DNA of 64,000 nucleotides, from assembly GCA_038087875.1 (NCBI GenBank), contig CM075996.1, positions 2,916,001 to 2,980,000 on the forward strand, written 5' to 3'. A model generated the notes under the pieces. That model had not been told where the DNA came from. It did no database searches and saw only the letters and a program-made list of their open reading frames with translations. Of the stretch, positions 1-54,100 are shown one piece after another (position 1 is the stretch's first letter; each line of letters begins with the position of its first letter). This DNA is from Malacoraja senta (taxonomy: Eukaryota). Position numbers and translations under genes: made by a program.

Positions 1-383
1 CTTCTCTCCAGAGATGCTGCCTGACCCGCTGAGTTACTCCAGCATTTTGTGTCTATCTTGGTATAAACCAGCATTTGCAGTTCTTTCCTACAAACTTTGA
101 TCAACACTTTTTCTGGCTTTGACGAAACATGTTGGCAACATCTGAGAATTTCATTATGTTTTGCAAGCTGCAAAACCAGTTCCAACAAACGTGCCTGATC
201 ACTGCAAAGGAATGTCAAGCTTACAAGCAAGCTCCCCAATAGAGACGGATCTGGCTAAAATATACCCCGGTAAACAAATGGAAAGCTATAAACTAGCATT
301 GTACAAGACCTCATGTTGTTCTGCATCCCTAGCCCGAGCTGTACCGAATTCTTAATGTTTGACTGCATTACCATCACCATTAA

Positions 384-669: not shown

Positions 670-680
670 TAACAGAATCA

Positions 681-890: not shown

Positions 891-3039
891 TCAACATAAT
901 CAGGTTTTGTGGTTGAAAGACACCACTGTCGAGAACTTGGGAGGGAGGTCGACTTAATTACTCATTAACTCATAGAAAAGAATTGTTTTTTTTAGTTCAG
1001 AGATACAGCACAGAAACAGGGCCTTCGGCCCACCCAGTCTGCATCGACCAGCGATCCCCGCACATTAACACTATCCTACAAACACACAAAGGACAACTTA
1101 CATTTATACCAAGCGAATTAACCTACAACGTCTTTGGAAGGTGGGAAGAAGCCAGAGCCCCTGGAGGAAACCCACACGGTCCCAGACAGTACCCATAGGT
1201 AAAGAATACCAAATCTTACCCTTTTGTCAGGATCAAACCAGGGTCTCTGGCGCTGTATGGCAGCAACTCTACCACTGCGCTACTGTGTAGGAAGGAACTG
1301 CAGATGCTGGTTTATCCCAAAGATAGACACAAAATGCTGGAGTAACTCAGCAGGACAGGCAGCATCTCTGAAGGGAAGGAATGGGTGACGTTTTGGGTGG
1401 AGACCCTTCTTCAGACTACACCACTGTGCCGTCCCCTTCTTGACACAAACACTCATCTATGCCACCAAAGGTAGACCACGGCTGTTGTACACATCATCTA
1501 TAAAGTGCACTGCGGTGACCTGTCTGGGATTCACGAAACAAACACACTGTACAAAATCAAGTCAGCATCTCGTGCAGTTCAAATGCCAAAACCTCAGGCT
1601 GCTAAATCACATTGAAGGACCAGCAGACTTCAGATGAACTTTGAAGTAAACTGATAGCAGTGGCAAGCAGAAGCGAAAGCAAATTAAGCTTACGCAAGAT
1701 TTGGCAAAAGTCAATCATGTGGAAAAACATCCAACAGGTTGCAAGGTCTGCCAGTTCCGCATCAAAGTGCAGAGTGTGCAAGATCAATAGGGTTTTACTG
1801 CAAGATACACACACAATTCTAGAGTAACTCAGCGGGTCAGGCAGCATCTCTGGAGAAAAGGAATAGGTGATGTTTCAGGTTGAGACCCTTCTTCAGACAA
1901 AGTTTGTGACATGAAACAGCCCCCATTCCTCCTCTCCAGAGATGCTGCCTGACCCGCTGAGTTACTCCAGTATTTGTGTATATTTTCCGTGTAAACTAGC
2001 ATCTGCAGCTTTCAGATTTTGCTTGGGCAGTTTACAACCCAGTGGTATGAATATTGAAGGTAGACACAATATGCTGGAGTAACTCAGCGGCTGAGGCAGC
2101 ATCTGTGGAGAGAAGGAATGGGCAACGTTTCGGGTCGAGACCCTTCTTCCTCACACACTGCATGAATATTGATTTCTCCAACTCCAAGTAACCCCTGCAT
2201 CCCCTTTATCTCCGTCCCTCTCCCACCCAAGACACACCAGGTACCCGTTCTCATCTGGAAAATGGCTGACAATGGCCTCTTTCTTTCATCATTACTTTTT
2301 TTGCTCATCTTTCATCTTTCATACATCAGCGTCTATATCTCTCGTTTCTCTCCCCCCCCCCCCCCCCCGGACTATGTCTGAAGGGTCTCGACCCGAAACA
2401 TTACCCATTCCTCTCCAGAGATGCTGCCTGTCCTGCTGTTACTCCAGAATTTTGTGTCCATCTTCGGTTTAAACTAGCATCTGCCGTTCCTTCCGACACA
2501 TTTCATCCGGGCAGTTCCTTCTTACACACAGGGTTTTACTGTATTTTAACATGGCAACACATTCCACAGCCATATCAAAATAAGCTCCCGCGCTGCTGGA
2601 TCTGCTGAGTAACTCAATTTTCCACACACCACCCTGATCTAGACAGCAAGATTTGTTTAAAATTCAGCAGCACTGACATAATATTTCTTAAGTGTATGTA
2701 CTGCTGAAACCAACTCATCACATGCTCAATGCTTGATCCCAAAGGAACATAAAAAAGAACACTTAGCTTTTAACGGCACTCACTTGAGGCAGAAAGACTT
2801 CTTCCCTCACTTCCCACCACAACTCCGATGCCTGCTCTGAAGCCAGAATTATGCATGTCATAAGATCATAAGTGATAGGAGTAGAATTTGGCCATTCTGC
2901 TGTGCCTGATCTGCTGTGTTCTTCCAACATTTTCATAAAGTCATAAGAGATAGGAGTAGAATTAGGTCATCCGGCCCACCAAGTCTACCCCGCCATTCAA
3001 TCACGGCTGATCTATCTATCCCTCCTAACGACATTCTCA

Positions 3040-6504: not shown

Positions 6505-6790
6505 GGGTGGCATGGTGACGCAGCAGTAGAGTTGCTGCCTTTCAGCGCCGGAGACCCGGGTTCGATACGGACTACGTGCGTTGTCTGCACGGAATTTGTA
6601 CATTCTCCCCGTGGGTTTTCTCCGAGATCTTCGGTTTCCTCCCACACTCCAAAGACGTACAGGTTTATAGGTTAATTGGCTTGGTATAAATTGTCCCTGG
6701 TGTGTAGGATAGTGTTAATGTGCACGGTTTGCTGGTCAGCACGGACTCGGTGGGCCGAAGGGCCTGTTTCCGCGCTGTATCTTAGCTAAA
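6505..6790 (+). mobile_element. tRNA-derived V-SINE (HE1-like); further copies at about 14073-14360, 17635-17950, 41033-41305, 51900-52170 (+) and 985-1285, 16465-16775, 33125-33375, 36840-37140, 52513-52800, 53400-53675, 62045-62405 (-)
   Basis: tRNA-like head with A-box (GGTG.CGCAGC.GTAGA) and B-box (GGTTCGAT), V-domain (TCTCCCCGTG..GGTTTCCTCCCACACTCCAAAGAC), and a CR1-derived tail TGGGCCGAAGGGCCTGTTTCC..(CTAAA)n. Confidence 0.85.
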
Positions 6791-8004
6791 AAAAAAAAAC
6801 ATTAGAAGGGTCTAACAAGGACGTTGCCAACCCAAAAACATCTACTTTGTTCGTTCTCAATAACACCGCCACCATTTTGTTTTACTTCCGATTTTCAGCA
6901 TCTAGTTTTTTTTGCTGAAGTTTTTGATCCCAACCCTCCACTGTACAATGTGGTAAAGACTTAAAAAGGATTCTTGCCATAAATCGAAACGGAAAAGCTG
7001 TTTCATTGTTGAAGATAAAATGAACCACTTTAACACACGGGCTCAACTGGTACCACCAACAACATGTGCCAAACGTCGAGAGTAAAGACAATATCAGACG
7101 ACAGGATGTACACCTTTTCCCACACACTGCTAAACGAGATCAAACGTCACGGAAATGATTAATGGAATGAAAACATCAGGAAGAACTAGATTTTCTTTGG
7201 GAGCATTTACAGGCACATTTCCTCCAACTTTCTTAGTCGAAAAACAAAAGACCTCATGAGACAGACAGAGCTGCCCGGTGGCCAAATCATTTTGGCAATG
7301 TCGACAAGCAGGAGAAGAACTCCAGCTCCACAAACACAGGGCACGACCAATTCAAGGAAGCCTGCGCCTTTTCTCCAAGAAAAGTAAGTGCAGCAGGTTA
7401 GCCTAGCAACTAATCAGGAAGATAAACAGCTCATTGGCCTTTACTGCAAAAGGGGAGCGTGTCTAATAGAACATTCCTGCTACATTCGCACAGGGCAATG
7501 GTGAGACCACACCTACAGCAACACACAGCTTGAAACGTTTGTATTGGAGGCAGTTCAGAAGGGACTTGCTGGGTTAATTTTTGGAATTAAGGTGTTGCTT
7601 GACAAGGTAGGATTTTGCCAACACTGACTGAAGGTTGGAAGAGGGGCAATTTTCTTTAAAACTTAAGATTCCAGGAAAGCTTGACAAAGCAACGTCGAGA
7701 TGTTTTTAAAATCGCGAAACAGAGGACATGGTTCCGGAATAAGTCACAAATTTAAGGCAGATGAGAACTTCTCTCCAGAGGGGCTTGGATCTTTGGAATA
7801 CTCCAATACACCAGTCATCTGTTGAGGCCGAATCAGTGAATATTTTCAGGGCTGAGCTAAACAAATGTTTAGTTTACAGGGAGTTATAGGTTGTAGAGAA
7901 AAAGCAGGAAAGCAGAGAGGAGACCAAGATCAGATCAGATATGATTTTACTCCAGGGTGGTGTCAGTTCAAGGGACAATTTGGCCAACTCCTGTTCCTTT
8001 TGAG

Positions 8005-8447
8005 GAATATGAGGAAAGATTGAAAAGACTAGGCTTGTATTCACTGGAGTTTAGAAGGATGAGGGGGGATCTTATAGAAACATATACAATTATAAAAGGA
8101 CTGGACAAGCTAGATGCAGGATAAATGTTCCCAATGTGGGGCGAGTCCAGAACCAGGGGCTACAGTCTTAGAATAAATGGGCCATTTACGACTGAGGTGA
8201 GAAAAAACGTTTTCACCCAGAGAGTTGTGAATTTATGGAATTCCCTGCCACAGAAGGCAGTGGAGGCCAAATCACTGGATGGCTTTAAGAGAGTTAGATA
8301 GAGCTCTAGGGGCTAGTGGAGTCAAGGGATATGGGGAGAAGGCAGGCACGGGTTATTGATAGGGGACGATCAGCCACGATCACAATGAATGGCGGTGCTG
8401 GCTCGAAGGGCCGAATGGCCTCCTCCTGCACCTATTTTCTATGTTTT
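8005..8447 (+). mobile_element. CR1 LINE 3' fragment
   Basis: [26 protein letters not shown]... plus the 3' UTR stem-loop. Confidence 0.9.
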
Positions 8448-10671
8448 CAAAAAAGTAAGACGCTAAGTTCCCCCAGCGTCTTCCAGGTCAGGCAGCATCT
8501 GCGGAAGGAATGGACAGATGGCATTTCAAGTTGGGACCTTCTTCGGTGTCTTAAGGGTCTCAACCCAAAACATCAGGACCTCGGTCCTGACCCAAAGCTT
8601 CAGCTGTCCATTCCCTATATAGATGTGTGGGAAGGAAGTGCAGATGCTGGTTTAAACCAAAGATAGACATAAAAAGCTGGAGTAACTCAGCGGGACAGGC
8701 AGCATCTCGGGAGCAAAGGAATGGATGACGTTTGGGTCGAGTATGAAGAATGGTCTTGATTCGAAACGTCACCCACTCCTTCCCTCCCAGAGATGCTGCC
8801 TGTCCCGCTGAGTTACTCCAGGTTTTTGCATCTATCTTCCCTACATAGATGTTGCACAACTCACTTACACGTACAACATGTCCAATGACATAAAGCAGGA
8901 TGGAGGGAGAAAGTGGTGGATGCTGGGCAAAGGGGCAGTAAGAAGGACCAAAGGGGTCTTATCTTCCACGCTCTCACAGTTGTGGGCCCCACCCCACCCG
9001 GGAAACAAGGGCCGAAGAGGGCCGTGCAAGGAGAGGGACGATGGTTCGCAGGACGACCAGAATGGAGGGGAAGGCTGGAATGGGCCTGTGTGGCCAGCTC
9101 TAAAATGGTGCCAAAATGGCACCTCTTGCACATGGACTCAGTGGGCTGTTCTGTACATTCTCTACTAACCAGAGTTATGTACAAGTGATAGTCTTGCTAA
9201 GCTGTGTGCAAAAAATGTATTTCACTGTACCTTGGTACACATGATAATAAATAAACCATTAGACCATTAGTTCCTCCAGCACTTAAAAACAATTGTTTTT
9301 AAAACTCCCTCAAGATACCAACATCTGCAGTTTCTTGTAGAAACAGGGAACTGCAAATGTTCTTTGACCGAAGAGACACACAAAACGCTGGAGTAACTAG
9401 GGGTATCAGGCCGCATCTCTGGAGAGAAGGAATGGGTAACGTCTTAGGTCGAGAGCGTTTGGTCCGAAGAAGAGTCCCGACCCAAAACGTCACCCGCTCC
9501 TTCTCGCCAGGGATGCGGCCTGTCCCGTTGAGTTACTCCAGCATTTTGTGTCTATCTACTGGCATAGCGTTTTGGGAACCGCTCTGCCCAACAGCGCCAG
9601 AAATTGTAGAGAGTTGTGGATGCAGCCCAGCCTATCACACAGACCATCTCTGGAGAAAAGGAACAGATGATATTTCGGGTAGACACCCATCTTCAGATTC
9701 AGAGTCAGAGTTTGGGTCTCGATCCAAACCGTCACCTGTTCCTTTTCTCCAGAGATGCTGCCTGACCCACTGTGTTACTCTGGCAATTTGCCATCAATCC
9801 CCTTTCTTAAAACTTCCAGGAAGAAAAAGTCAGCCCAGCCAACACGCACCATTGTCTGGAATCATTCTTTCCAATCACCACCCACCCCTCTCATTCTGCA
9901 GCCCCACACATTTAAGTGGGTGCAAGAAATTTTAAACACTGGGCAGTCTTTAGAGGATGAAACAGGGGGGGGGGGGGGCAAAACCTCCCCCCCCCCCCCC
10001 ACCGCCAAAAACTAAAAAATAAACCTGGCTTCTCTTAATCCAATGCCCGTCATTACAGACAGCAACAACCATTGACAGCTCCAGTAACTACAACAGCTGC
10101 TGGCTACTTCCTCTAAAAGGAAGCAGACCCAGGCGAGAAAAATAGATGCAAAACAAAACATTAATTTAAAATAAAAAAAACTCAAAGAAAAATTATACAA
10201 AATCACCCCAAACAAAAATAAAATCAACCCCCAAATTCTTCCTTTCCAACTTCAATTTAAATACTTAGAGGGCAGAGTTTTTTCCCCCCCCCACCAAGAT
10301 TTAGGTATTATTTTAAATGCAAAATTCAAAGTTTTGGAAGGAGATATTTGGGGTTGATTTTTGGTTTGTTTGGGGGATTTGTACAATTTTTCCATGAGGA
10401 TATTTTTTTTAACATAATAACAACGATAATAATCTGTAGCATTGCCATAATACAATTTTTGCAGCATTTGTTACGAGATTTGTGGAATTTATTGCATGGC
10501 AATAATGCAGTCTTTGCAGCATTCTCGGAGGTTGGTACACATTGCCCGGTGATACATTTTCGCAGCAACGCATGATATTTGGAGCATTGTACCATGGTGT
10601 TTTTTTTTTTTTTGTGTGTGTGTGTTTTTTTTTTTTAATACGGATTATTTATTTACCATGTTAAAACTTAC

Positions 10672-10747
10672 CCAGGTAAATGTCCCCAAAAGAGCCGCTG
10701 CCAATCTTCCTGCCCAGCCTGTATTTGTTTCCAACTCTCAGCTCCAT
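10672..10747 (-). CDS. CSNK1E: Casein kinase I epsilon, first coding exon (76 nt; exon spans 10759-10672 including 12 nt of 5' UTR). Downstream exons were not found in 1-10671 and probably lie outside the window
   Basis: Translates [25 protein letters not shown](G) with the kinase glycine-rich loop; NKY matches CK1-epsilon (delta has NRY). Acceptor TTTTCTTTTTCCAG at 10760-10773; donor G|GTAAGT at 10671, phase 1. Confidence 0.93.
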
Positions 10748-10879
10748 CTTTATTTTGCTCTGGAAAAAGAAAATTAAAGAGGGGTGGGTTGGGGGAGAGG
10801 GAAGAGAAAGAGCCTTCAGTTTGGTGTTGTCTCTGCCTCTTGTGACTGAGGGAAAGAGGGTGGGTGAATGGATGAAGGG

Positions 10880-11326: not shown

Positions 11327-11887
11327 TGAGTTGAGGTTGTTGAGGTTGTTGAGGTTTTTTGAGGTTTTGGGATTTGGAGATTTGGTAGATTTGGTAGATT
11401 TGAGAGATTTGGAGATTTGGGAGATTTGAGAGATTTGGAGATTTGGGAGATTTGAGAGATTTTGAGATTTTGGAAATTTGAGAGGTTTGCAGATTTGGAA
11501 ATTTGAGAGGTTTGCAGATTTGGAAATTTGCAGATTTGCAGATTTGGAAATTTGAGAGGTTTGCAGATTTGGAAATTTGAGAGGTTTGCAGATTTGGAAA
11601 TTTGAGAGGTTTGGAGATTTGGGAGATTTGAGAGGTTTGCAGATTTGGAAATTTGCAGGTTTGCAGATTTGGAAATTTGCAGGTTTGCAGATTTGGAAAT
11701 GTGGAGGTTTGCAGATTTGGAAATTTGAGAGGTTTGCAGATTTGGAAATGTGGAGATTTGGAAATTTGAGAGATTTGAGAGATTTGAGAGATTTGGAAAT
11801 TTGCAGGTTTGCAGATTTGGAAATTTGGAGATTTGAAGATTTGAGATTTTGGAGATTTGGAGATTTGAGAATTTGGGGATTTGAGGT
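11327..11887. repeat. Minisatellite of ~9-bp units (GAGATTTGG / GAAATTTGA / CAGATTTGG variants)
   Basis: Directly visible tandem array with a ~27-bp higher-order period. Confidence 0.95.
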
Positions 11888-14589
11888 AGTTTTCAAAGGT
11901 TCAAAGGTCTGTTTATTGTGAATGCAGACGTGGAATTCTCTGCCTCAGAGGGCGGTGGAGGCGGGTTCTCTGGATGCTTTCAAGAGAGAGCTAGATAGGG
12001 CTCTTAAAGATAGCGGAGTCAGGGGATATGGGAAGAAGGCAGGAACGGGGTACTGATTGGGGATGGTCAGCCATGATCACATTGAATGGCGGTGCTGGCT
12101 CGAAGGGCCAAATGCCCTACTCCTGCACCTATTGTCTATTGTCTATAAAATGCTGGAGCATCTCTGGAGAGAAGGAATGGGTAGACACAAAATGCTGGAG
12201 TAACTCAGCGGGACAGGCAGTCCCAACCTACTCAGCCTCTCCCTATAGCTCAGACCCTCCAGTCTTGGCAACACCCTTGTAAATCTTCTCTGTCCCCTTT
12301 CCATCTTGATAACACCTTCCCTATAATATGTCAAGGGTGTCAAGGGTTATGAGGAGAAGGCAGGAGAGTGGGGTTAGGAGGGAGAGATTGATCAGCCATG
12401 ATTGAGTGGAGGAGTAGACTTGATGGGTCGAATGGCCAAATTTTACTGCTGTCATTTATGACCTTACGATAACAAGGTGCCCAGAACTGAACGCAATATG
12501 TACACAATAAGAGAAATCATGAGAGGAATAGATCAGGTAGATGCAGAGTAAGTGAATCGAGGACCAGGACATAGGTTTAAGGTGAAGGGGAAAAGATTTA
12601 ATAGGAATCTGAGGGTTAACATTTTCACACAAAGGGTGGTGGGGTGTACGGAACAAGCTGCCAGGGGAGATAGCTGAGGCTGGGACTATCCCAACGTTTA
12701 AGAAATAGTTAGGCGTGGGAGATTGCAACCTTCACGTGGTCCGCCCTGTTTCGACGAATACAATCAAATAAGATCAAATAGAACAAGTTGTCCTACAACT
12801 TTAGGCTGTGCACGCCATACGCAAGAAGAAGAAGAAACAGTTAGACAGGTGCATGGATAGGACAAGTTTGGAGGGATATGGGGTAAACGCGGGCAGGTGG
12901 GACTAATGTAGCTGGGACATGTTGGCCGGTGTGAGCAAGTTGGGCCGAAGGGCCTGTTTCCACACTGCATCACGCGATGACCCCATGACTCTGATAAAGT
13001 ATAGGTATAAGTATAGGTTTTCCCCTCCATGTGGATATAAACAGTAGGAAAAAAAAAGAAAATCCACTTGAGAAAACAGAGGGCCTCGGTTCAATGTATC
13101 ATCCCTATAAATGGCACCTGTAGTAAGTGCCTCCTTTGATGTGATTAGAATGTCAGTCTGAATTTGTATGCTCATTTCTCTGGGGTGAAACTAGAACAAA
13201 CAATGTAATGAGTCAGAGATAGGGATGCTGCAAAATACACTGCGGTTACTGCCAATTACAGATTTATCCAAGCTTTTAAACAAGGGCACGGCACCTCTTG
13301 GATACTCTCGTGTGCAGGAAGGAACTGCAGATGCTGCTTTACACCAAAGATAGACACAAAATGCAAGAGAAACTCAGCGGGACAGGCAGCATCTCTGGAG
13401 AGAAGGAATGGGTGACGTTTCGGGTCGAGGCCCTTCTTCCTGAAGGTGTTAAGGGTTATGGGGAGAAGGAAGGAGAATGGGGTTAGGAGGGATAGACACA
13501 AACATAGAAACATAGAAAATAGGTGCAGGAGTAGGCCATTCGGCCCTTCGAGCCTGCACCGCCATTCAATATGATCATGGCTGATCATCCAACTCAGTAT
13601 CCTGTACCTGCCTTCTCTCCATACCCCCTGATCCCTTTAGCCACAAGGGCCATATCTAACTCCCTCTTAAATATAGCCAATGAACTGGCCTCAACTACCT
13701 TCTGTGGCAGAGAGTTCCAGAAAACCCATGCGGTCACGGGAATAACGTACAAACTCCGTACAGACAGTACGCGTATTCTGTATTGAACCCGGGTCTCTGG
13801 CACTGTGAGGCAGCAACTCTACCGCTGCACCACGGTGCAGTCTTTTTCTCCCTGCCCCCTCAGCAGGACCCGCAGCATCTCTGGATAGAAGGACGTTTCG
13901 GGTGGCTGTATCTGTCTGAAGAAGGGTCTCGACCCGTAACATCACCCATTCCTTCTCTCCAGAGATGCTGCCTGTCCCGCTGAGTTACTCCAGCATTTTG
14001 AGTCCATCTTAGATACGCTCACAGGGAGGCGACTAGGGGGCAGGGAGAAAAAGACTGCATTTAAAGACTGCACCGTGGTGTAGCGGTAGAGTTGCTGCCT
14101 CACAGTGCCAGAGACCCGGGTTCCCTACAGAATACGCGTACTGTCTGTACGGAGTTTGTACGTTATCCCCGTGACCTGCGTGGGTTTTCCTGGATGCTCC
14201 GTTTCCTCCCACACTCCAAAGATGTGCAGGTTTGTAGGCTATTTGGCTTCTGTAAATTGTCCCTAATGTGTGGGATTGAACTAGCGTACAGGTGATCGCT
14301 GGTCAACGCGAACCTGGTGGGCCGAAGGGCCTGTTTCCACGCTGTATCTCTAAACTAAAACAAAAAAAAATCTCTCACTTTGCATAATGTTCCATATCCA
14401 TATTATCTTCAGAAAAGCTTTTGTTGCGTGCTATCCAGTCAGCAGAAAGACAATACATGATTACAATCGAGCTGCTTACAGTGTACAGATACATGATGAG
14501 GGAATAACGTTTAGTGCAAGGTAAAGCTAGCAAAGTCTGATCAAGGATAGTCCGAGGGACACCAATGAGGTAGATAGTAGTTCAGCACT

Positions 14590-20400: not shown

Positions 20401-20904
20401 TGAACCCGGGTCTCCAGCACTGTGAGACAGCAGTTCCACTGCCTCCCTCTACTGTAAATAAGCTGGCGAGTGTCTCATCTCTGTGTGAGGTGATGTGCTG
20501 TCCCTACCCTCTCAGTGTCATCTCCAGACAATAGCAGAGTCACAACATTTCTGCCAGCACATCACACAACATACACCCTCATTTCAAGATGGCAAACCAC
20601 ATTCAACGTGGCACCTTGGAGACAATGGACCAGACTTCTCCGTCTACAACTGCAATGACTGTCCTGTGAATGTTCTGACTATAAAGATCTATAACGTCAG
20701 TATCTCCACCAATGTAAAGCACTTTGGCCAACGAGAGTTGTTTTTTAAATGTGCTATAGAAATAAAAGTGACTTGACTTGACTTGACTTAAAGTCTTGCC
20801 TAAAAAGTAACTGTTTAGGCAGAACTTTACTGTTTGTAGATAGACACAAAATACTGGAGTAACTCAAGTGGGCACAGGCAGCATCTCTGGATAGAAGGAA
20901 TGGG

Positions 20905-20933
20905 TGACGTTTCGGGTCGAGACCCTTCTTCAG
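20905..20933 (-). ncRNA. Minimal hammerhead ribozyme motif in a Penelope-derived repeat
   Basis: Reverse strand reads CUGAAGA-A-GGGU(CUCG)ACCC-GAAA-C-GUC-A. Confidence 0.6.
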
Positions 20934-21279
20934 ACTGTCACCCATTCCTTCTCTCCAGAGATGCTGCCCGTCCTGCTGGGTTCCTCCAGCATTCTGTGTC
21001 TATCTTCGGTGTAAACCGGCACCTGCAGTTCCTTCCTACACTATTTAGTATTTATGTGTAGGAAGGAACTGCAGGTGCTGGTTTAGACCGAAGATAGACA
21101 CAGAATGCTGGAGTAACTCAGCGGGGGCGGGCAGCGTCTCTGGAGAGAGGGAATGGGTAACACTTCTTCAGATGGGTCTCGACCTGAAACGTCACTCATG
21201 TCATGTTTACTATTTACCGAGCAATGTATCGTATGAGGTAAGCTACGGATTTATTTCAAGAACAGTCAGAATTGCCTTC

Positions 21280-21900: not shown

Positions 21901-22407
21901 AACCGAGGAGAAGGTTAAGACCGATGAGACTGGTCGGGCCGAATGGCCTAAATCTGCTAACGTAGAGTCTAGAGCCCTCAGCTCAGTTTAGTATAGAGAC
22001 ACAGCGTGGAAGTAGGCCTTTCGGCCCACCGAGTCCGCATCGACCAATGATCATCGGTACATAGTTCCATCCTACACACTGGGCACAATTTACAGAGGGT
22101 TAATTAACCTGCAAACCCGCACGTCTTCGGGATGTGGGACGAAACTGGAGCACCTCGAGGAAACCCACGTGGTCACAGGGGGGACGTGCAAACTCCACGC
22201 TCAGACAGCACCCGAGGTCAGGATTAATGAAAGTCCTAATGGGAGTTTTGATCATTGTCTAACCCAAAGATCCTACCCCTCGTTTATTATTTAAACACTG
22301 CCCGATGATCGAAGTCCCACTGATAACTTCTCCCTTCAACATTTGAATTGAAATTATTTTCTTAAACCAAGGCATGATTCTAACTCACGGGTTTGAACAC
22401 TACATGT

Positions 22408-22436
22408 CTGAAGAAGGGTCTCGACCCGAAACGTCA
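22408..22436 (+). ncRNA. Minimal hammerhead ribozyme motif in a Penelope-derived repeat
   Basis: CTGAAGA A GGGT CTCG ACCC GAAA C GTC A: intact catalytic core, 4-bp stem II, palindromic ACGU stem III, GUC cleavage triplet. Confidence 0.6.
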
Positions 22437-22499
22437 CCTATTCCTTTTCTCCAGAGATGCTGCCTGACCTGTTGAGTTACTCCAGCTTTTTTCATAGAT

Positions 22500-28262: not shown

Positions 28263-28427
28263 AATGTTGTGCCTTTTATCTTTTGTGCACTTTGAATGGC
28301 TTGATTGTAATCCCGCATAGTCTTTTGCTTTTAAGAAGGAACTGCAGATGTTTGAAAATCGAAGGTACACAAAAATGCTGGAGAAACTCAGCGGGTGCAG
28401 CAGCATCTATGGAGGGAAGGAGATAGG

Positions 28428-28456
28428 TAACGTTTCGGGCCGAAACCCTTCTTCAG
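28428..28456 (-). ncRNA. Minimal hammerhead motif, second Penelope subfamily
   Basis: Reverse strand reads CUGAAGA-A-GGGU(UUCG)GCCC-GAAA-C-GUU; stem II is kept through a U-G pair. Confidence 0.55.
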
Positions 28457-28811
28457 ACTGATAGGGGGTGGGGGGAGGCGGGGAGAAGAAAGGAAGGAGA
28501 AAGGAGGAGGAGGAGCCCGAGGACTGAGGTGGGAAGGGGAGGAGACAGCAAGGGTTAACAGAATTGTGAGAATTCTGAAGAAGGGTTTCGGCCCAAAACG
28601 TTGCCTATTTCCTTCGCTCCATAGATGCTGCTTGCACCCGCTGAGTTTCTCCAGCATTTTTGTCTACCTGTGAGAATTCAATGTTCATGCCACATAGTCC
28701 CGCATAGTCTTTTGTTTTGCTGGTTTAACATGCAAACAAAAGCTTTTCACTGCAGCTCGGTACACGTGACAATAAACGAAACTGTCGACCTCTTAAACTG
28801 TAGAAACTCAG

Positions 28812-29153: not shown

Positions 29154-30929
29154 TAAGCATATATGGCAGTAGTAAACAAAACTAAGCTAAACTAAGAAGA
29201 GGAGAGACCAGCACTCCAGGGGTTAATGTTATCAGCTGTCCAGTAAAACAAGAAGTTATCGGAAAAACTGTCCACATTCTACTTTGTTGATGACTCAGCC
29301 GGAAGGTGTGACAAGCAGCAATGTTTGGCTGAGACTGGTGTTACTGGTTTGGCAAAGCTGTGTTAATGGAAGCTGTGCACTGAGCTATAGTTCAGTTTAG
29401 AAACAATGGGTGGTTACAGGCCCTTCGGCCCACCGAGCCCGCACCGACCAGCGACCCCCTGCACATATTATCACTACCCTGCAAACACTAGGGACAATTT
29501 TACACTCATACATTCATTGTCAGGCAACTGAACCATCCTCTCACCAACTAGAGTGTGGTCCTGAAGCCAATTAACCCTCAAACCTGGACGTCTTCGGAGT
29601 GGATATTTTTCAATGGATATTTTTAAGGCGGAGATAGATAGATTCTTGATTAGTACGGGTGTCAGGGGTTATGGGGAGAAGGCAGGCGAATGGGGTTAGG
29701 AGGGAGAGATAGATCAGCGATTGAATGGCAGAGTAGACTCGATGGGCCGAATGGCCTAATTCTGCTTCTATCACATGACCGTATGAAACTGTCTTGGATA
29801 CACCTCATACATTCTGCCCTTTCTAAGTTTAAATGTGACCCATTCCTTCCCTCCAGAGACGCTGCCTGTCCCGCTGAGTTACTCTGGCATTTTGTGTCTA
29901 TCTTCGGTGTAAACCAGCATCTGCAGTTCCTTTCTCCACCTGTCCATCTCCGCTTTAAATATACCCAAAAACTTGGCCTCCTCAACCGTCTGTGGCAATG
30001 AATTCCACAGATTCACCACCCTCTGACTAAAGTCAAGTCAAGTCAAGAGAGTTGTATTGTCATGTGTCCCAGATAGGACAATGAAATTCTTGCTTTGCTT
30101 CAGCGCAACAGAATATTGTCGGCATAAATACAGAACAGTTCAGTTCAATATACACATAAATAAGCAGATAAAGTGCAATAGGCTCTTACTGTTCAGAGTC
30201 TGTTTGTTGGCGAGTTTAATAGCCTGATGGCTGTGGGGAAGTAGCTGTTCCTGAACCTGGATGTAACAGATTTCAGGCTCCTGTACCTTCTGCCCAATGG
30301 TGGCAGGGAGATGAGTGCGTGGCCAGGACGGTGTGGGTCCTTGATGATGTTATCTCCTTCGAGCGGTGCAGGCTCGTAGGGCCAAATGGCAATAGCCAAT
30401 AGACAATAGACAATAGGTGCAGGTGGAAGCCATTTGGCCCTTTGAGCCAGCACTGCCATTCAATATGATCATGGCTGATCATCCCCAATCTGTACCCCGT
30501 TCCTGGCCTCCTCCTGCACCTATTTTCTATGTTTCTAAAGGTACGTCCTTTAATTCTGAGCCTGCGCACTCTTGTCCTCGACGCTCCCACTAGTGAAAAC
30601 ATCCTCTCCACATCCACCTTATGCAGGGAGGTGGAATACTGTACATAAATACAATCAGACCCAACTCAAGTACAATGGGTAGAGAGAAGGGGAAGATACA
30701 GACCCTTCTTCAGACTGAGTCAGTGAGACACGTAGATAAGGAAGTGTGAGGTGTGAAAATAGGACAAAGGGGATGGAGTTCAAGAAAATGTAGAGATCAA
30801 TGGAAATTGTTAGCTCAGCAAAGGTATGTATCTCCCTCTCCCCTGCTGGAGTAACTCAGCGGGACAGGCAGCATCTCTGGAAAGAAGGGAGGGGTGACAT
30901 TTTGGGTCGAGTCGAGACCCTCCTTCAGT

Positions 30930-30958
30930 CTGAAGAAGGGTCTCGACCCGAAACGTCA
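30930..30958 (+). ncRNA. Minimal hammerhead ribozyme motif in a Penelope-derived repeat
   Basis: Perfect CTGAAGAAGGGTCTCGACCCGAAACGTCA. Confidence 0.6.
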
Positions 30959-31934
30959 CCCATTCCTTCTCTCCGGAGACGCTGCCTGTCCCGCTGAGTT
31001 ACTCCAGCACTTTGTGTCTATCTTCAGTTTAAGCCAGCTTCCTACACATTGTAGCCCAACAGTTCCATAGACAAAGTCCAATGTCTCCAAGGGGGGTAGA
31101 GGTGAACCGGGCAGCACCCTAGATTGCGGAAGGAACGTTCAGAAGCCAGATAACAAAAAAAGACGAACTTGTGGGGATGTGGCAAGTTTCAGTCGAGAAA
31201 CCTCCACTTCCTTTTATTTATTTAGACTTGTCAATGTTCTACCCTCTCTTTTCCTTCCTCTTTTTTTTTCTTAATAGTAAACAAAAGGGACGGAAAAAAT
31301 TGTGCATCAACATAAAGATCTTGCTTCTTGGAATTATTAACCAAGAGGACCATACTGAACTCATCTTTCTGCCTTGTCAAGTCAAGTCAAGTTTATTCGT
31401 CACATACGCATACGAGATGCGCGGTGAAATGAAAAAGTGGCGATGCTCGCGGATTTGTGCAAAAAAAAACAAAACAAACCAGACTACAAACAGAATGGAA
31501 CAGAATCACATATTCTTTTACATATTACATATTGTGGGAGGGAGGAAAAAGGAGAAAAAACCCAGCAATTTAAATAAAACAGTAGAATGGTTCAGTAAAG
31601 TTAGTCCCTGGTGAGATAGGAGTTTACAGTCCGAATGGCCTCTGGGATGAAACTCCTTCTCATCCTCTCCGTTCTCACAGCATGGCAACGGAGGCGTCTT
31701 CTTATTTCTCCCGCTGGTGTGAAGTAAATTTGCGCTCACTGCCAATGTCTCTCGTGTCCCTCTCCCCAGACTAGTCTGAAGATGGGTCTCGACCCGCAAC
31801 GTCACCCATTCCTTCTCTCCAGAGATGCTGCCTGTCCCGTTGAGTTACTCCAGCTTTTTGCGGCTATCTTTGGTTTAAACAAACATCTGCAGTTCCTTCC
31901 TGCACAGTGAAAAGCTTTGTTGTTGTGTGCTATC

Positions 31935-32440: not shown

Positions 32441-34099
32441 ATCCAGTCAGCAGAAAGAGAATACATGATTATAGCCTCTCCTCTCCCCCCCCCCCCCCCT
32501 TTCTTCCTCTCCCTGCATCATCTCTCTTTTTCCTCACACTTTCACACTCCCTCTCTCCCTCCCTTTAACTTTAGGCTTTTGACTTCAAAGGTACACCGCA
32601 GAAACAGGTCAGACAAATGGAGTAACTCAACTAAGATAGACACAAAACGCTGGAGTAACTCAGTGGGACAGGCAGCATCTCTGGAGAGAAGGAATGGGTG
32701 ACGTTTCGGGTCGAGACTCTTCTTCAGATGTCACCCATTCCTTCTCTCCAGAGATGCAGCCTGACCCGCTGAGTTACTCCAGCTTTTTGTGTCTATCTTC
32801 AGTTGAAACCAGCATCTGCAGTTCCTTCCTACACGTAGAAGTTGGGAGGTCATGTTGCAGTTGTATAAGACATTGGTGAGGCCACATTTAGAGTATAGAA
32901 CACTGCTAATATCTTATGACTAAATGTGTAGGAAGGAATTGCAGTTGCTGGTTTAAACCAAAGATAGACACAAAATGCTGGAGTAACTCAGCGGGTCAGG
33001 CAGCATCTCTGGAGGGAAGGAATAGGTCATGTTTCGGGTCTGAAGAAGGGTCCTGATCCCGAAACGTCACCCATTCCTTCTGGGTTACTCCTTGTGTCCA
33101 AACTCTAGCTTGTAAACAAACTAAAGTTTAGTTTAGAGATACAGCGTGGAAACAGGCCATTCGGCCCACCGAGTCCGTGCCGAGCAGTAATCCCCACTCA
33201 CTAACACTATCCTACACACACCAGGGACAATTTACAATTTTACCAAGTGTGGGAGCACCTGGAGAAAACCCACGCGGTCATGGTGAGAACGTAAAAACTC
33301 AGTGCTGACAGCATCCGAGGTGAGGATGGAACCGGGGTCTCTGGCGCTGTGAGGCAGCAACTCTACCGCAGCGCCTCAAAATGTTTTATTTGGTGTTGGA
33401 AGTGAAGAATTCCTCCCGCCCTCTCCTCCCTCCTCTCACACCACCCTTCCGCCTTTTACTCTGCCATGTGCCACCGATCCACTCGTGCTTGGACCCAGGG
33501 AGAACATTAAACCCGTCGCCAACGACTTTTGTTGATGCGTTTCAAGCCCAGAGAAAAATATTTCCCTTTGTTTGTGCTGCTACTTGTCCGGACCTGCGAG
33601 CAGTTTCAGTGTTAGTGGCGACAGGTTCAGAGTTCCAACTCGTCACGCCTGGGGTTGTTGCCGACACCTGGCTGTGTACGCTGATGGAAATGGGTTTTAG
33701 GAACTAGGGGTACTCTAAGGTCCGTGAGGCTGAGGTTGGGAAGGAAGGGGGGGGGGGTTCATGTGCGGTCATACCCATGTAAGAGTACAAGATTGCATAA
33801 CTTGTTTATTGTGTATTTATAATATAGTTTATTGTGTATAATAGACAATAGACAACAGGTGCAGGAGTAGGCCATTTGGCCCTTCGAGCCAGCACCGCCA
33901 TTCAATGTGATCATGGCTGATCATCCCCAATCAGTACCCCGTTCCTGCCTTCTCCCCATATCCCCTGACTCCACTATTTTTAAGAGCCCTATCTAGCTCT
34001 CTCTTGAAAGCATCCAGACAACCTGCCTCCATCGCCCTCTGAGGCAGAGAATTCCACACACTCACCACTCTCTGTGAGAAAAAGTGTTTCCCCGTTCTA

Positions 34100-34440: not shown

Positions 34441-35021
34441 GAGTAAATGGCTTACTCCTTATTCTTAAACTGTGGCCCCTGGTTCTGGACTCCCCCAACA
34501 TCGGGAACATGTTTCCTGCCTCTAGCGTGTCCAAGCCCTTAACAATCTTATATATTTCAATGAGATCTTCTCTCATCCTTCTAAACTCCAGAGTGTACAA
34601 GCCCAGCTGCTCCATTCTCTCAGCATATGACAGTCCCACCATCCCGGGAATTAACCTTGTAAACCTACGCTGCACTCCCTCAATAGCAAGTATTATATGT
34701 CATAGCTGCTTCTTGCATCTGTCTCTCTCAGACAGACGAAAGCAATGATCATAGAGTGGAATAGATGACATTTCGGGTCGAGACCCTTCTTCAGACTGAC
34801 AGTCAAGGGAAAGGGAAACAGGAGATATAGGCATATCTTCCATTCATTTGTCCTTAGTCCCGTCTATATCTCTTGTTCCTCTTTCCCCTGACTCAGTCTG
34901 AAGAAGGGTCTCGACCCGAAATGTCATCAATTCCACTCTATGATCGTTGCTTTTGTCCGTCTGTCCACTCGCCCTTGGATTAAGTAGCGCAGGATAAAGC
35001 TGTGAATTCACTCCATTCCTC

Positions 35022-35360
35022 TCCCATTCCCAATCTGACCTTTCTGTCCTGGGCCTCCTCCATTGTCAGAGCGAGGCCCAGCGCAAATTGGAGGAGCATC
35101 ACCTCATATTTCGCTTGGGCAGCTCACACCCCAGCGGCATGAACATTGACTTCTCTAACTTCAAGTAGCCCTTGCTTTCCCTCTCTCTCCATCCCCTCCC
35201 CCTTCCCAGTTCTCCCACCAGTCTTACAGTCTCCGACTCTATTCTATCTCTGTCCCACTCATCCCTGACATCAGTATGAAAAAGGGTCTCGACCCGAAAC
35301 GTCACCCATTCCTTCTCTCCAGAGATGCTGCTTGTTCCGTTGAGTTACTCCAGCATTTTA
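35022..35360 (+). mobile_element. Penelope-like element 3' end: GIY-YIG endonuclease C-terminus plus terminal repeat
   Basis: 35022-35168 translates SHSQSDLSVLGLLHCQSEAQRKLEEHHLIFRLGSSHPSGMNIDFSNFK*, followed by the abundant hammerhead-bearing repeat. Confidence 0.8.
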
Positions 35361-39770: not shown

Positions 39771-42079
39771 TATGCTGCTGTAGTTCAGAATTTCAATGTT
39801 CTGTTGCTGTTAATTATGGCATTTAATCTCTATTCTTGACTCTTGACTCAACGAACTTTGATCCCGTTTCTTAGAGTCCCACTAAAAAAATAGAGGATTG
39901 AGATTTCTATCGCATTATTCATAACATTGGCTCCGCCGACTTGCAATTCTTGGTTTTGATGTGGACCAGTGTTGGTTTAGTTTAGTTTAGAGATACAGCG
40001 CGGAAACAGGCCCTTCGCCCCCCCCCCCCCCCCCCCCCCCGACTCCGCACCGACCCCCGCACACTAACATCATCCTACACGCACTAGGGACAATTTTGCA
40101 TTCGTACCAAGCCAATGAACCTGCAAACCTGTAGGTCTTTGGAGAGCGGGAGGGAACCGAAGATCTCAGAGAAAACCCACGCAAGTCACGGTTTCAGTTT
40201 CCTCCCACACTCCAAAGACGTGCAGGTTGGTAGGTTGATTGCCTTGGTATAAATGTGGGATTAGATTTGCAATTAGATTAGTAACCTGGATTTCGACACT
40301 GGCCTTGTTGCAGAACATAGAAGCTACCGAAGCGGACACAATGACAACTTATAAAAGACGTTTGGACAGATCTGTGGACAGCAAGGGTTCAGAGGGCAAG
40401 GGGCCAAATGCAGGCAAATAGGACTAGCCCAGTATAGCAACTTGATCTTATAACAAATGTAAAGCACTTTGGCCAACGAGAGTTGTTTTTTAAATGTGCT
40501 ATATAAATATATGTGACTTGACTCTCCTCAAATTGTGTTTCTGATTTTCTTTTGTGCTTTTGGAGTGAATTCTGTCCTTGATTTGTGTATTGTGGTGTCT
40601 TTATAATTTATTTTATTCCGATTATGTGTTTCTTATGTGATTTTATGTCCTGTAAGGTGTCCTTGGGTGTCTAGAAAGGCGCCAGCAAATAAAATGAATT
40701 ATTATTATTATTATTGACTTGATGTGACTTGATCAGCATGGACCCAGTGGGCTGAAGGGCCTCTTTCCATGTTATATAGCTCTACAACAACACCATTATC
40801 TCTGGTCTCCATCTCTGGTAGCGCAGTTCAGCCAATGCTCCTTCGAGTATATAATCAGTTTTTAATACACGCTTGCTATCTCTTCCCGTTTGTCGCGAGG
40901 TAATCTGTGCTCGCGTTGCACAGACAGTGTGAATATTCCGACCTTCCCCTGCCTCTCATTCCAAGGATCCGAAGTCGGTTGCTAATATTTGCCAGGAATC
41001 TAATCCCACATTTTTCCACGTCCATGGCAGGGCGCGGTGGCGCAGCGGTAGAGTTGCTTCCTCACAGCGCCAGAGACCCGGGTTCGGTCCCGACCACGGG
41101 TGCCTGTCTGCACGGAGTTTGTTCGTTCTCCCCGTGACCCGCGTGGGTTTTCTCCGGGTGCTCCTGTTTCCTCCCACAAACTCCTAATAATAAAATTTGT
41201 CGCTGGTGCGCGCAGGGTAGCGCTAGTATGCGGGGATTGCTGGTTAGCGCGGACTCGGCGGGCCGATGGGCCTGGTTTCCACGCTGCATCTCTAAACTGA
41301 ACTAAAAATCGGGGCAGGTTAGTCATAGAATCGTACAGCACAGAAGCAGGCCATTTCAGCAGGATGGGCCGAATGGCCTAATTCTGCTCTGATGACTTGT
41401 CAACTTATGAAAAAGCCTTTCTCTGTACCTGAGTGCACGTGACAATAATAAACCAAACTAATCTGTTCGGAGGTACACAAAAATGCTGGAGAAACTCAGC
41501 GGGTGCAGCAGCATCTATGGAGCGAAGGAAATAGGTAACGTTTCGGGCCGAAACCCTGTCTGTTCGGACTGTGCAGACAGGAATTGAAGTTTCAATGATT
41601 CAATGATACTTGAGGTACAAGGCACGGTGAAATCCTTTGTTTTTTGCATTCAATATACGCAAAGAGTTGCCACGTAGCTGACACTAAAGTTACAAAAGTA
41701 CTTATTAGAGTCATAGGTACACAAAATTGCTGGAGAAACTCAGCGGGTGCAGCAGCATCTATGGAGCGAAGGAAATAGGTAATGTTTCGGGCCGAAACCC
41801 TTCTTCAGTCATGATGGTCCTTGTGTAGGAAGGAACTGCAGATGCTGGTTTAAACCGAAGATAGACACAAAAAGCTGGTGTAACTCAGCGGGACGGGCAG
41901 CACCTCTGGAGAGAAGGAATGGGCGATGTCTCGGGTCGAGACCCCTCTTCAGACTGAGGAAGGGTCTCGACCCGAATCGTCACCCATTCCTTCTCTCCAG
42001 AGATGCTGCCTGTCCCACTGAGTTACTCCAGCTTTTTGTGTCTATCTTGTTGTCGGTTGGCCCTGGGACAGATAGCAGT

Positions 42080-42108
42080 CTGAAGAAGGGTCCCGACCCG
42101 AAACGTCA
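42080..42108 (+). ncRNA. Minimal hammerhead ribozyme motif
   Basis: CTGAAGA A GGGT CCCG ACCC GAAA C GTC A; only the loop differs from consensus. Confidence 0.55.
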
Positions 42109-42949
42109 CCTGTCCATGTTCTCCAGAGATGCTGGCTGAGCCGCTGAGCTACTCCATGGAACAACTTGTGTCGTCTTCAGAAGAGACTTGGAGTTGCCTT
42201 GCCTTCCTCCATGGGAGGCAACTGGTCCAACGGTGACCTCTACAGGCACGTTGGGGTATTGACCAACATTGCAGCCATCAGCGTCATAGAACATGGAAAC
42301 AGGCCCTTCAGCCCAACATGTCCGCGCCCACCAAGATGCTACTATGATAATCCACTTTACACTTTCCTACACAGGCTAGGGACAAATCTTTTACATTTAC
42401 GCCAAGCCAATTAACCCACATAAAGCACAATTCACTTACCCAAATTTGGCCCAAATTCTTCTCAACCAAATGTCTTTAAATGTTGCTATTGCTGTTTGAA
42501 CATTGACTTCTCTAACTTCAAGTAACCCTTGCTTTCCCTCTCTCTCTCCATCCCTCCCCCATCCCAGTTCTCCGACCAGACTGAATGTCTCTGACTACAT
42601 TTCATCTCTCTTTGCTTTACCTTCTCCCAGCTAACAATGATCTATTCAACATTTTCTTTGATCTCCATTCCCTTTGGCCTGCTTTCACACTTTACACTTC
42701 CTTATCTATGTATCTCCCTCTCCCCTGACATCAGTCTGATTGAAGAAGGGTCTCGACCCGAGACGTCACCCATTCCTTCTCTCCAGAGATGCTGCCTGTC
42801 CCGCCGAGTTACTCCAGCATTTTGTGTCTATCTTTTGTTTTAGTTTAGATGTGTAGGAAGGAACTGCAGATGCTGGTTTTAATGTTGTTTAGTTTAGAGA
42901 TACAGAGCGAAAACAGGCCCTTCGGCCCACCGAGCCTGTACCGACCAGC

Positions 42950-51166: not shown

Positions 51167-54100
51167 CTGACCCAGTGCGGGTCGGGAGAAAGGGGTGGAG
51201 GAAACGAGGGAAAGATGGTCCAGTGGGCAGGGAAGGCAGGCAGAGAACCACATAATAATGACATCTGCACGGTTCACTGCCAATTACTCCAGGAATGTGT
51301 TGACATTGACCTGAACCGAGAGATTCATTGATAGACCACTCCCTCAGACTAAGCAACTCATATTTAGCTGGGGCTGTGGTATGAATATTGAATAGTCTCG
51401 ACCCGAAACGTCACCCATTCCTTCCCTCCAGAGATGCTGCCTGTCCCGCTGAGTTACTCCAGCGTTTTGTGTCTATATTTGGTCTGAATGTTGATTTCTC
51501 TAACTTCACGTAACCCTTGCTTTGCCCTCTCTCTCCGTCACTCCCCCACCCTGGTTCTCCGACTAGTGTCACTGCCCTCCTGATGAATTTTTAACTGATT
51601 GCGTGTCTCCTTGTCACCTTCCCCAACAATTGATCCATTCTACATTTGCTTGATCACCGTCCCCTTTGATCTGTGTTTTCACACCTCGCCCTTCCACATC
51701 TCTATGTCTGCCCATCCCCTGACTCTCAGTCTGAAGAACGGTCTCGACCCGCAACGTCACCCATTCCTTCTCTCCACAGATGCTGCCTGTCCCGCTGCTG
51801 AGTTTCTCCAGCATTTCATGTCGAACCAACGTGCCTGATGCTGTTTACAATGGGGAACAACGACATGAAATGGGTGTGTGTTAGCTGTGAAATGAACCAC
51901 ACGGTGGCGCAGTGTTAGAGTTGCTGCCTCACAGCGCCAGAGACCCGGGTTCGATCCCGACTGCGGGCGCTGCCTGTACGGAGTTTGCACGTTCTCCCCC
52001 GTGGTGACCCGCGTGGGTTTTCTCCGAGATCTTCGGTTTTCTCCCACACTCCAAAGACGTGCAGGTTTGAGGGTTAACTGGCTTGGTATAAGTGTAAATT
52101 GTCCCTGGTGTGTGTGGTCGGTGGGGACTCGGTGGGACCTGAAGGGCCTGTTTCCGCGCTGTGTCTCCAAACAAATCTTGTCTAAAAAAAACGAACTCAT
52201 TGTGTCTGACCAGACCCAAGGCAACGATATTATTTACTTGTCCTGACGTCCTCTCTCACTTCCCCAGAACCCTGACTCAATCTCCAGTGAATTCGATGAC
52301 TCATGGTAGGATCAACCACAACGGGAGATATTTTTTAACCCTTCATACTCCAGAGATGTGGGAAATCTATTTAGCAGTCCCGACCTCTGGTAGGGGTGGA
52401 ACAGCGGCGCAGTGGGTGGAGTTACTGCCTTACAGCGCCGGAGACCCGGGTTCGATCCTGACTACGGGTTGCCTTTCCTATCCATGTACCTGTTCAAATG
52501 CCTCTTCGTTTTTTTTAGTTTAGAGATACAGCGCGGAAACAGGCCCTTCGGCCCACCGAGTCCGGGCCCACCAGCGATCCCCGCACATTAACACTATCCT
52601 ACACACACTAGGGACAAATTTACATTTATACCAAGCCAATTAACCTACAAACATGTACGTCTTCGGAGTGAGGGAGGAAACTGAAGATCTCGGAGAAAAC
52701 CCTCGCAGGTCACGGGGAGAACGTACAAACTCCGTACAGACTGCAACCGTAGTCGGGATCGAACCCGGGTCTCCGGCAAATGCTGGAAGGCAGCAACTGT
52801 GCCACTCACGCACCATAGTCTCAGCCTCAACTACCTCCTCTAGCAGCTTGTTCCATGCACCCACCACCCAGAAAAGTGACGCCTCAGGTTCCTATTAAAT
52901 CTCCACCCCCCCCCCCCTCCCTCCCCCCATCACCTTAAACCTGTGTCCTCTGGTTCTCGATATCCCTACTCTGGGCAAGAGACTCTGTGCGTCTACCCGC
53001 GATCTATTCCTCCCATGATTTTATACACCTCTATAAGATCACCCCTCATCTGCCTGTGCTCCAAGGAATAGTCCCAGCCGGTGACTTTTCGGCGACTGCC
53101 GGCACCCGGCACTAATTACCGTCCACAGGGCCCACGGCTGAAGCCTCCGAAGCCTTGCATGCACGCAAGAAGTTGTGCCCCCCCCCCCTGTCCCCCCCCA
53201 GGTTTTAATATTGATTTCCGTGATTGGGAGAGAGATTATTTTGTGTGAGCTACGGAATTGATTAGTGAACTCATAGGAAGCGATGCCTATCTAAGCTAAT
53301 AATAGTCACAGTCATACAGGGTGTGATTAAGCTGCAGAGGATGCAGAAATGATTCACAAGAATGTGGCTGACAACAGAGTTATAAGGGGAGATCAGTTCA
53401 GTTTAGTTCACAATGGGGAAACAGGCCCTTCGGCCCACCGAGTCTGCACCGACCAGCGAACACTCTCCGACACACACTAGGGATCACTTTATAACCAAGA
53501 CAATTAACCTACAAACCTGTACGTCTTTGGGGGGGAAACCGGAGCTCCCGGAGAAAATCCCACGCGGTCACGAGGAGAACGTACTGACTCCGTACAGACA
53601 GCACCCGTAGTCGGGATCGAACCCGGGTCTCTGGCGCTGTGAGGCAGCAATTCTACCGCTGCGCCACCGTGCCGCCCAGTTCGGCTGGGACTTTCTTCCC
53701 TTGAGAGATGTTAGCTTGAGGGCTGACCTTATGAGGATTTTTTTTTAAATCACGAGGCATAAATGGGGTAGTCACAGTCTTTTTCCCAGAATAGGGCGGC
53801 CAAAAACAAGTCAGTACACGCAAGTTCAAGGCGAAAGGGGCGAAATGTATAAATAAATAAACAGATTTAAGAAAAAATTTAAAAGATCAGAAGAGTAGAT
53901 ATTTCAGACAGAGGGAGGTGGGAAGATGCTGGTTTACACCAAAGATGGACACAAACTGCTGGAGGAACTCAGTGAGTCAGGCAGCATCTCTGGAGAAAGA
54001 GCAAGTGTGACATTTGGGGTCGGGACCCTTCTTCAGACTCTCTTTACAGTCCCTCTTTACAATGCTGAGCCTGGCGGTTGGCCAATCAATTAAACTAAGA

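Follow-up and report, generated by a model that had tools for sequence, protein, structure and literature searches.

Minimal hammerhead ribozymes of metazoan Penelope-like elements constitute an already published motif class (Cervera and de la Pena, 2014; PMC4209133); they occupy the pseudo-LTR (pLTR), downstream of the endonuclease, and are found mostly as solo copies, with dual copies on opposite strands. In this source, monomers of the minimal motifs are inactive and dimers weak, the alignment contains motifs with a helix I of 2 bp, namely from Culex, D. virilis and Oikopleura, and chondrichthyans are absent from Table S1 and Fig. S3. Biochemistry is available for PAc, a Poseidon element of Anolis carolinensis (Frangieh et al., 2024; PMC11167929), where uncleaved RNA is the dominant substrate, internal RT start was shown in vitro, the two tail ends correspond to two internal RT start sites, and the motif cleaved only in the presence of its protein. 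As regards the EN+ elements, Neptune or Nematis affiliation is indicated by a CxxC-type linker (Craig et al., 2021; PMC8557442), and the Penelope layout comprises inverted, 5'-truncated pLTRs arranged head-to-head, a tail at one end and palindromes at the junctions (PMC8557442; Arkhipova et al., 2013, PMC3846280), while what hammerheads do in Penelope elements with an endonuclease is described as unclear (PMC8557442). Finally, non-LTR retrozymes are pLTR-derived, non-coding units with a type I hammerhead (bioRxiv 10.64898/2026.07.22.740005).

The skate repeat considered here populates a 64-kb stretch of DNA, hereafter the window. As judged from its sequence, its motif fits the published consensus (PMC4209133), i.e., CUGANGA plus one extra base, a G10.1-C11.1 pair, GAAAN, a loopless palindromic 15.2-16.2 and an NUH site, and it too occurs in the pLTR downstream of the endonuclease, solo in most cases or as dual copies on opposite strands, but its 4-bp stem II and 2-bp helix I stand at the short end of the range, and its flanks lack U/AU richness and can form a hairpin that competes with it. 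With PAc (PMC11167929) the repeat shares two 3' ends past the hammerhead, delimiting a tail of 30-40 nt, apparently an uncleaved RNA as template, and an ATT-containing insertion site near its own ORF-pLTR junction; it differs by its clade (CxxC linker), by a hammerhead sitting in a non-coding 3' UTR, 110-250 nt past the stop, and by the nature of the evidence, a genomic record instead of biochemistry. With Neptune/Nematis elements (PMC8557442, PMC3846280) it shares a C-terminal GIY-YIG, the CxxC linker in relatives, inverted 5'-truncated pLTRs, a one-end tail, junction palindromes or microhomology and TSDs, whereas inserts are here usually pLTR arms alone, forming palindromes of ~200 bp, at a density of ~1 copy per kb. 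The retrozymes (bioRxiv 10.64898/2026.07.22.740005) are similar in being pLTR-derived, non-coding and equipped with a type I hammerhead, but the unit boundaries of the skate repeat are not at the cleavage site and the window holds no tandem array of intact units. The skate family is undescribed in the literature searched (subscription journals, Repbase and Dfam being outside the search); with its motif class published, the repeat is an added family member, which the supplements of bioRxiv 2026.07.22.740005 may already include. Taken as a whole, our reading, to which we assign a probability of about 0.7, is that the copies are relics of a Neptune-type pLTR with a minimal hammerhead, copied from uncleaved RNA by internal RT starts, with copying mostly ending near -31.

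Repeat copies and the hammerhead motif

Positions within the repeat are numbered relative to the hammerhead, with core C3 at -28, the predicted scissile C17 at -1 and the following base at +1. Exact copies of the 28-nt motif occur at 22408-22435(+), 30930-30957(+) and 20906-20933(-), while the copy at 42080(+) differs solely by its stem II loop (CCCG). The original prediction had listed these four copies as intact, which is exact for 22408 and 30930, applies to 42080 with a changed loop and calls for a shift of the - strand copy from 20905 to 20906. Its description of the motif, namely a complete core with an extra A before stem II and a loopless palindromic ACGU restricting helix III to dimers, was accurate at the exact copies, which further exhibit a 4-bp stem II, GAAA and GUC. 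Allowing up to 3 mismatches, 22 motif matches were found in the window, against 0.00 expected and 0 in 100 shuffles.

Profile searches returned 62 rows, corresponding to 61 distinct copies after removal of one duplicate row. These copies of a repeat unit of ~100-135 nt (53 from subfamily A and 8 from subfamily B; 30 on the + and 31 on the - strand) amount to 6,011 bases, i.e., 9.4% of the window, with a median identity of 0.91, which bears out the very high copy number put forward initially. The whole motif is spanned by 34 of the 61 copies and, in keeping with the mostly decayed state also put forward, nine of these 34 pass the minimal-hammerhead descriptor. All nine display the CUGANGA core, an extra base H, a stem II with G10.1-C11.1, GAAAN and NUH, while the 15.2-16.2 palindrome reads ACGU in six, AUAU in one and is replaced by a non-palindromic U-G in two. 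Helix I, rightly suspected to be short, counts 2 bp in eight of the nine; in the ninth (33040), it reaches 4 bp only via the sequence of the inverted partner. The scan with the Rfam hammerhead models, suggested as a check, gave no match at E<=1 in the 64 kb, or at E<=10 in 22370-22480, which in our reading stems from models expecting helices I and III. Matches of the miRNA type in Rfam were rejected as miRNAs, corresponding as they do to inverted pairs folding back. At 5300-5464 and 8486-8544, an older and more diverged subfamily of the same repeat is present (72-80% identity), the sequence of which differs past the cleavage site.

Outside the window, contigs matching one 301-bp stretch numbered 128,869 of 27.2 million in one sequencing run (X1) and 152,460 of 46.2 million in another (X4), this stretch also containing a second repeat and contig counts not being equivalent to copy number. 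The family is present in 4/4 sequencing runs with four organism codes, which shows that it is very abundant and shared across the four runs.

Table 1. Positions of repeat copies and associated features in the window.
Feature	Position	Strand	Description
Minimal type I hammerhead motif, subfamily A	22408..22435	+	C3 at 22408, predicted cleavage after 22435; short pLTR copy 22406-22491
Head-to-head inverted pair	30844..31041	both	Centred on small palindrome around C3; + arm intact (motif 30930-30957)
Inverted pair	20838..21041	both	- arm intact (motif 20906-20933), short 3' end (+66); + arm starting at -3, tail present (+102); 9-nt candidate TSD
Intact motif 42080, CCCG loop (A-like variant)	42076..42156	+	Broken same-strand copy at 41954, 126 nt upstream
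5'-truncated Penelope-like copy	35022..35359	+	Last 48 GIY-YIG endonuclease codons (35022-35168), pyrimidine-rich 3' UTR, motif 35276-35303 with two core changes
Subfamily B long copy	28331..28690	-	Reaches ORF end; intact motif 28429-28456, GUU site; stem II closed by U-G, loop UUCG
Short B copy nested at ORF end of the 28331..28690 copy	28574-28669	+	
Composite insertion in CK1 intron	1802..2530	both	Inverted pair 1802-2008, then ORF end, UTR and pLTR ~1993-2500; inverted copy nested at 2057-2149; outer ends each with an 11-nt direct repeat
Long copy from last endonuclease ORF codons	42497..42840	+	Motif broken
Long copy with nested short copy 51395-51483 at ORF-end site	51350..51822	+	Motifs broken or truncated
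Descriptor-positive arm (motif from 33040)	33038..33081	+	Belongs to inverted pair 32925-33081
Inverted pair	34758..34934	both	Full core in both arms, U-G replacing C15.2-G16.2; both ending at +9
Descriptor-positive copy in CK1 intron (the only one)	9645..9697	-	Sense to gene; AUAU palindrome; 2-bp helix I
Inverted pair with clearest TSD (16 nt, 1 mismatch)	8624..8838	both	Tail on one arm, other arm short; motifs broken
Casein kinase I (CK1) first coding exon, best match epsilon	10672..10759	-	Intron from 10671 to window start

Source element, decay and host gene

The open frame at 35022 (48 codons and a stop) ends 110 nt upstream of the motif at 35276, and its peptide shows 81% and 74% identity to the C-termini of two Leucoraja erinacea proteins (GIY-YIG), which suggests a skate or near relative as source; that the repeat directly follows such a C-terminus had been correctly noticed. 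For comparison of homologues, 4 of 62 representatives, those two proteins and two ORF pieces from metagenome loci were aligned. These relatives extend upstream into YIGET and a C-x4-C-x2-C linker, the latter being present in P0003, P0009, P0027 and P0030, and P0030 (62% over the peptide piece) exhibits by eye an RT-like region without a Pfam match. Pfam GIY-YIG matches are weak overall among relatives (E of 0.0009-0.008, below the cut-off), e.g., in P0002 and P0003, which run upstream into YIGET (E=0.008 and 0.0013, respectively, below the curated cut-off), and the 48-aa piece alone has no Pfam match. The ORF end is reached by five copies, namely those at 35022, ~1993, 28690, 42497 and 51350; the window contains neither the RT of the parent element nor a visible full-length element. 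From these sequence comparisons, the repeat would be the pLTR end of a Neptune-type Penelope-like element, Nematis sharing the linker. The assignment to a Penelope terminal repeat, already made in the original prediction, is upheld by the identity of the GIY-YIG C-terminus, by the two 3' ends defining a tail and by the head-to-head pairs with one tailed arm.

Predicted host proteins P0002, P0003, P0004 and P0007 end in a Penelope endonuclease C-terminus fused to unrelated genes, and these fusions are probably annotation chimeras with the repeat. In three longer copies, short copies (2057-2149, 28574-28669 and 51395-51483) are nested at nearly one site, within the last codons of the endonuclease ORF, each with a duplication of 10-13 nt, and a fourth long copy (42497) begins at this same site, a pattern suggestive of self-targeting or of a favoured cleavage site.

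Among the 53 A copies, non-CpG substitutions affect 20 of 314 positions in the core (6.4%) and 240 of 2811 in the flank (8.5%; p=0.23), or 181 of 2631 (6.9%; p=0.81) when diagnostic sites are left out of the flank, whereas CpG sites, which affect G12 and the ACGU palindrome, differ at 17-22%. As the core decays like the flank, inserted copies decay neutrally.

Part of the window belongs to a casein kinase gene. The 25 residues encoded by the CK1 exon at 10672-10759(-) are identical to CK1 epsilon and CK1 delta differs at 1 of them; the name CSNK1E, under which the original prediction had placed mostly decayed copies in an intron, thus rests on one residue, while the copies themselves are there. 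The CK1 intron (1-10671, - strand) houses 17 of the 61 copies, 9 sense and 8 antisense, of which one is descriptor-positive. Intact motifs account for 1/6 of the motif-spanning copies in this intron and 8/28 outside (p=1), so that the 17 intron copies reveal no depletion of sense or intact copies, as had been considered, and no strand bias; the host gene itself gave no sign of being affected. Copies inside the intron have diverged further than those situated 5' of the gene (0.86 vs. 0.92, p=0.005), as if recent insertions were missing from the intron.

On the - strand, a non-coding first exon is likely; its donor is at 11059, and an acceptor is found 12 nt ahead of the start codon of CK1 (10759). 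Just upstream of the CK1 CpG island, 11330-11944 is a low-complexity array of 8-9 nt units, open in several frames. Other retroelements include a two-ORF LINE, assigned by eye to the L1 type and apparently intact, in an AT-rich stretch at 44170-48054 and 48984-50048(-), with frames for a 1294-aa endonuclease-RT and a 354-aa ORF1-like protein and a decayed relative at ~59341-61034, as well as a frameshifted CR1-like LINE at 55146-58278(+), which comprises an ORF1 resembling an esterase and pieces of endonuclease-RT; short 3' fragments of the CR1-like kind are numerous across the window.

Insertion ends and the state of the template

The 5' ends of the 61 copies are distributed as 27 at -34..-26, 23 across -25..+25 and 11 farther upstream, and the cleavage site has 1 end at a distance of up to 2 nt and 4 at up to 4 nt; under four alternative scorings, the upstream peak gathered 23-27 ends and the site 1-6. 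Against a uniform spread over -34..+25, the peak gives p=2.5e-10, the ends being not fully independent, and, as ends of local alignments, these positions carry an uncertainty of a few bases, some long copies being scored short (2380). Of the 27 piled ends, 17 belong to arms of inverted pairs and 10 to solo copies, so that microhomology at junctions may inflate the peak; upstream flanks of the piled copies are, by eye, partner arms or unrelated DNA, not element UTR. With respect to two comparator families from metagenome loci, a pile-up 2-25 nt before the core is present in one (20/32, broader) and absent in the other (4/23). Among the loose 5' contig ends listed, those at 31773 (= -31) were the most frequent in 4/4 sequencing runs, with none listed at +1, and were discounted because the reference copy has a private 2-nt gap there and other loose ends fall on its private mismatches.

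Given an RT start downstream of the site, a cleaved template would yield copies beginning at +1; the few 5' ends at this position thus suggest that inserted copies derive from uncleaved RNA, or else from an antisense template, as proposed for Penelope elements (PMC3846280). RNAs cleaved but never inserted would leave no genomic trace. At the opposite extremity, 3' ends fall at +66/67 in 13/61 copies and at +98..103 in 20/61, which defines an optional tail of 36 nt. Divergent (head-to-head) pairs number 18 and gather 36 of the 61 copies, one pair being a nested insertion and one having a 64-nt spacer. Exactly one arm is tailed in 14/18 pairs and both arms in 0/18 (p=0.013), and the diagnostic base at +32 is common to both arms in 12 of 13 informative pairs (p=0.003). 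Candidate TSDs of 9-16 nt flank several pairs, other pairs having only chance-level direct repeats.

In the mechanism we propose, the RT-endonuclease would nick DNA and reverse transcription would begin internally, at +67 or +103, i.e., downstream of the hammerhead site, then proceed through the uncleaved hammerhead and mostly halt near -31, where the template would most likely begin, at an Inr-like start, or where the cDNA would fold back on a small palindrome. Two such cDNAs would be joined by microhomology into inverted pairs, and dispersed copies would be dead-on-arrival relics. Any ribozyme action would be slow, protein-assisted or dimer-dependent, and would take place in the RNA of the parent element, not in dispersed copies. 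The bases around -31 indeed comprise a small palindrome but are also similar to a 3' splice site; they match the Initiator (Inr) consensus, and an RNA start is proposed at this position. An Inr-like word has been noted in a pLTR (PMC3846280).

Were the pile-up at -34..-26 a 3' splice site or fold-back point, splicing could lengthen helix I and activate the ribozyme. In both subfamilies a pyrimidine tract ending in CAG is found one base before helix I, GT follows the last codon of the ORF in four of the five long copies, and the Penelope intron of D. virilis ends at helix I (PMC4209133, PMC2377424). However, a shared upstream exon is found in 0/10 solo copies, the GT is explicable as a G-ending codon followed by the stop and subfamily B has none there, no more than ~6 nt separate the branch-point-like word from the AG, and metagenome motifs mostly have no AG at this place, which makes this explanation highly improbable; a transcription start or fold-back at -31 is favoured over a splice site.

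The sharp unit ends, and the shortness of 50 of the 61 copies, are also what would be expected from a distinct non-autonomous family, i.e., a unit akin to a SINE or a retrozyme, extending from ~-31 to +103, that has master copies of its own, depends on the Penelope protein for mobilisation and cleaves as dimers. Head-to-tail joints from +103 to -31 do exist, rare as they are (1 contig in run X1 and 6 in run X4), and pLTR-derived tandem retrozymes occur in one chondrichthyan genome (bioRxiv 2026.07.22.740005). Nonetheless, the monomer of a retrozyme should begin at +1 and not at -31, subfamily sequences are common to short and long copies, the window is devoid of a tandem array, with no two intact same-strand copies in tandem, and dispersed arms on opposite strands (36/61 copies) cannot form a dimer in cis. 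Besides, published monomers are inactive and dimers weak (PMC4209133), and cleavage was absent in 8 of 9 Xenopus dimers (bioRxiv 2026.07.22.740005). A non-autonomous family of this type, as claimed in the original prediction, is thus quite improbable, short copies being equally well explained as 5'-truncated pLTR insertions of a parent element whose ORF end is reached by five copies.

Under the favoured reading, i.e., pLTR relics copied from uncleaved RNA, copy ends of a very abundant family provide a readout of template cleavage and RT start, which a genome-wide count would test. The result in the window agrees with the single in-vitro study, obtained in another clade, of an uncleaved template and two internal starts.

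Ribozyme potential of the motif

Between subfamilies A and B, 0/11 core bases and 13/68 flank columns changed (p=0.10). The four changes located in or next to the motif all keep the structure, namely C to U in the loop, U-A to U-G in stem II, C17 to U and U-A to U-G in helix I, a pattern that may point to selection, in the parent element, for a ribozyme that works. The covariation score of 0.220 was not significant, with 48 of 500 shuffles as high, the changes being mostly one-sided and 9 of the 11 rows having been picked as intact.

For comparison, a metagenome scan supplied 120 loci (L001-L120) with the same core, serving as comparators only, their core being conserved by construction; no blastn match to the window repeat over more than 45 nt was found among them, and a scan of viral contigs gave 0 motif matches. 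Helix I reaches at least 3 bp in 42 of 68 distinct metagenome motifs with this core (shuffled mean 5.2) compared with 2 bp in A and B. The predicted probability of stem II is 0.001-0.013 against a median of 0.80 in the 68 other motifs, since a competing hairpin occupies its 3' half. The energy of the dimer model exceeds that of the best cofold by 21-22 kcal/mol, which is worse than in 64-65 of the 68 comparators, ViennaRNA energies ignoring tertiary contacts of the core and help from proteins. A longer helix I involving the downstream CUGAGU, drawn by eye, was rejected as it did not restore the 1.1-2.1 helix and was absent from predicted folds. From these models, ribozyme activity appears doubtful. 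As for the dispersed copies, the original prediction that they seed self-cleaving motifs is not supported, in view of neutral decay, arrangement of 36/61 copies in divergent pairs, an unfavourable predicted fold and 5' ends avoiding the cleavage site.

The short helix I, the low probability of stem II and the poor rank of the dimer model would all be accounted for by a motif that is non-functional even in the parent, whether a degenerate relic or a signal for protein binding or dimerisation that only keeps the hammerhead shape. We regard this as rather unlikely, although less so than the other alternatives: a 2-bp helix I also exists in the Culex, D. virilis and Oikopleura motifs (PMC4209133), the anole motif needs its protein to cleave (PMC11167929), and the core is identical between subfamilies, while the calculations are blind to tertiary contacts in the core.

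A tentative reading, which we consider unlikely, combines several of these elements. The ~10^5+ insertions would probably record uncut templates, with RNA starting three bases before the core, so that helix I could not exceed 3 bp, and with two internal RT priming sites; helix III would pair two template RNAs on a dimeric RT, giving one-tailed inverted pairs, and the hammerhead would be a repurposed dimerisation and boundary signal, with recurrent self-targeting of the ORF end. If true, the family would constitute an in-vivo record that a Penelope hammerhead leaves the retrotransposition template uncut.

Also numerous in metagenome contigs are minimal hammerheads linked to Penelope that share this core and have a helix I of 3-5 bp, several of which (L008, L033, L034, L047, L064 and L072) are situated directly 3' of RT-endonuclease ORFs.
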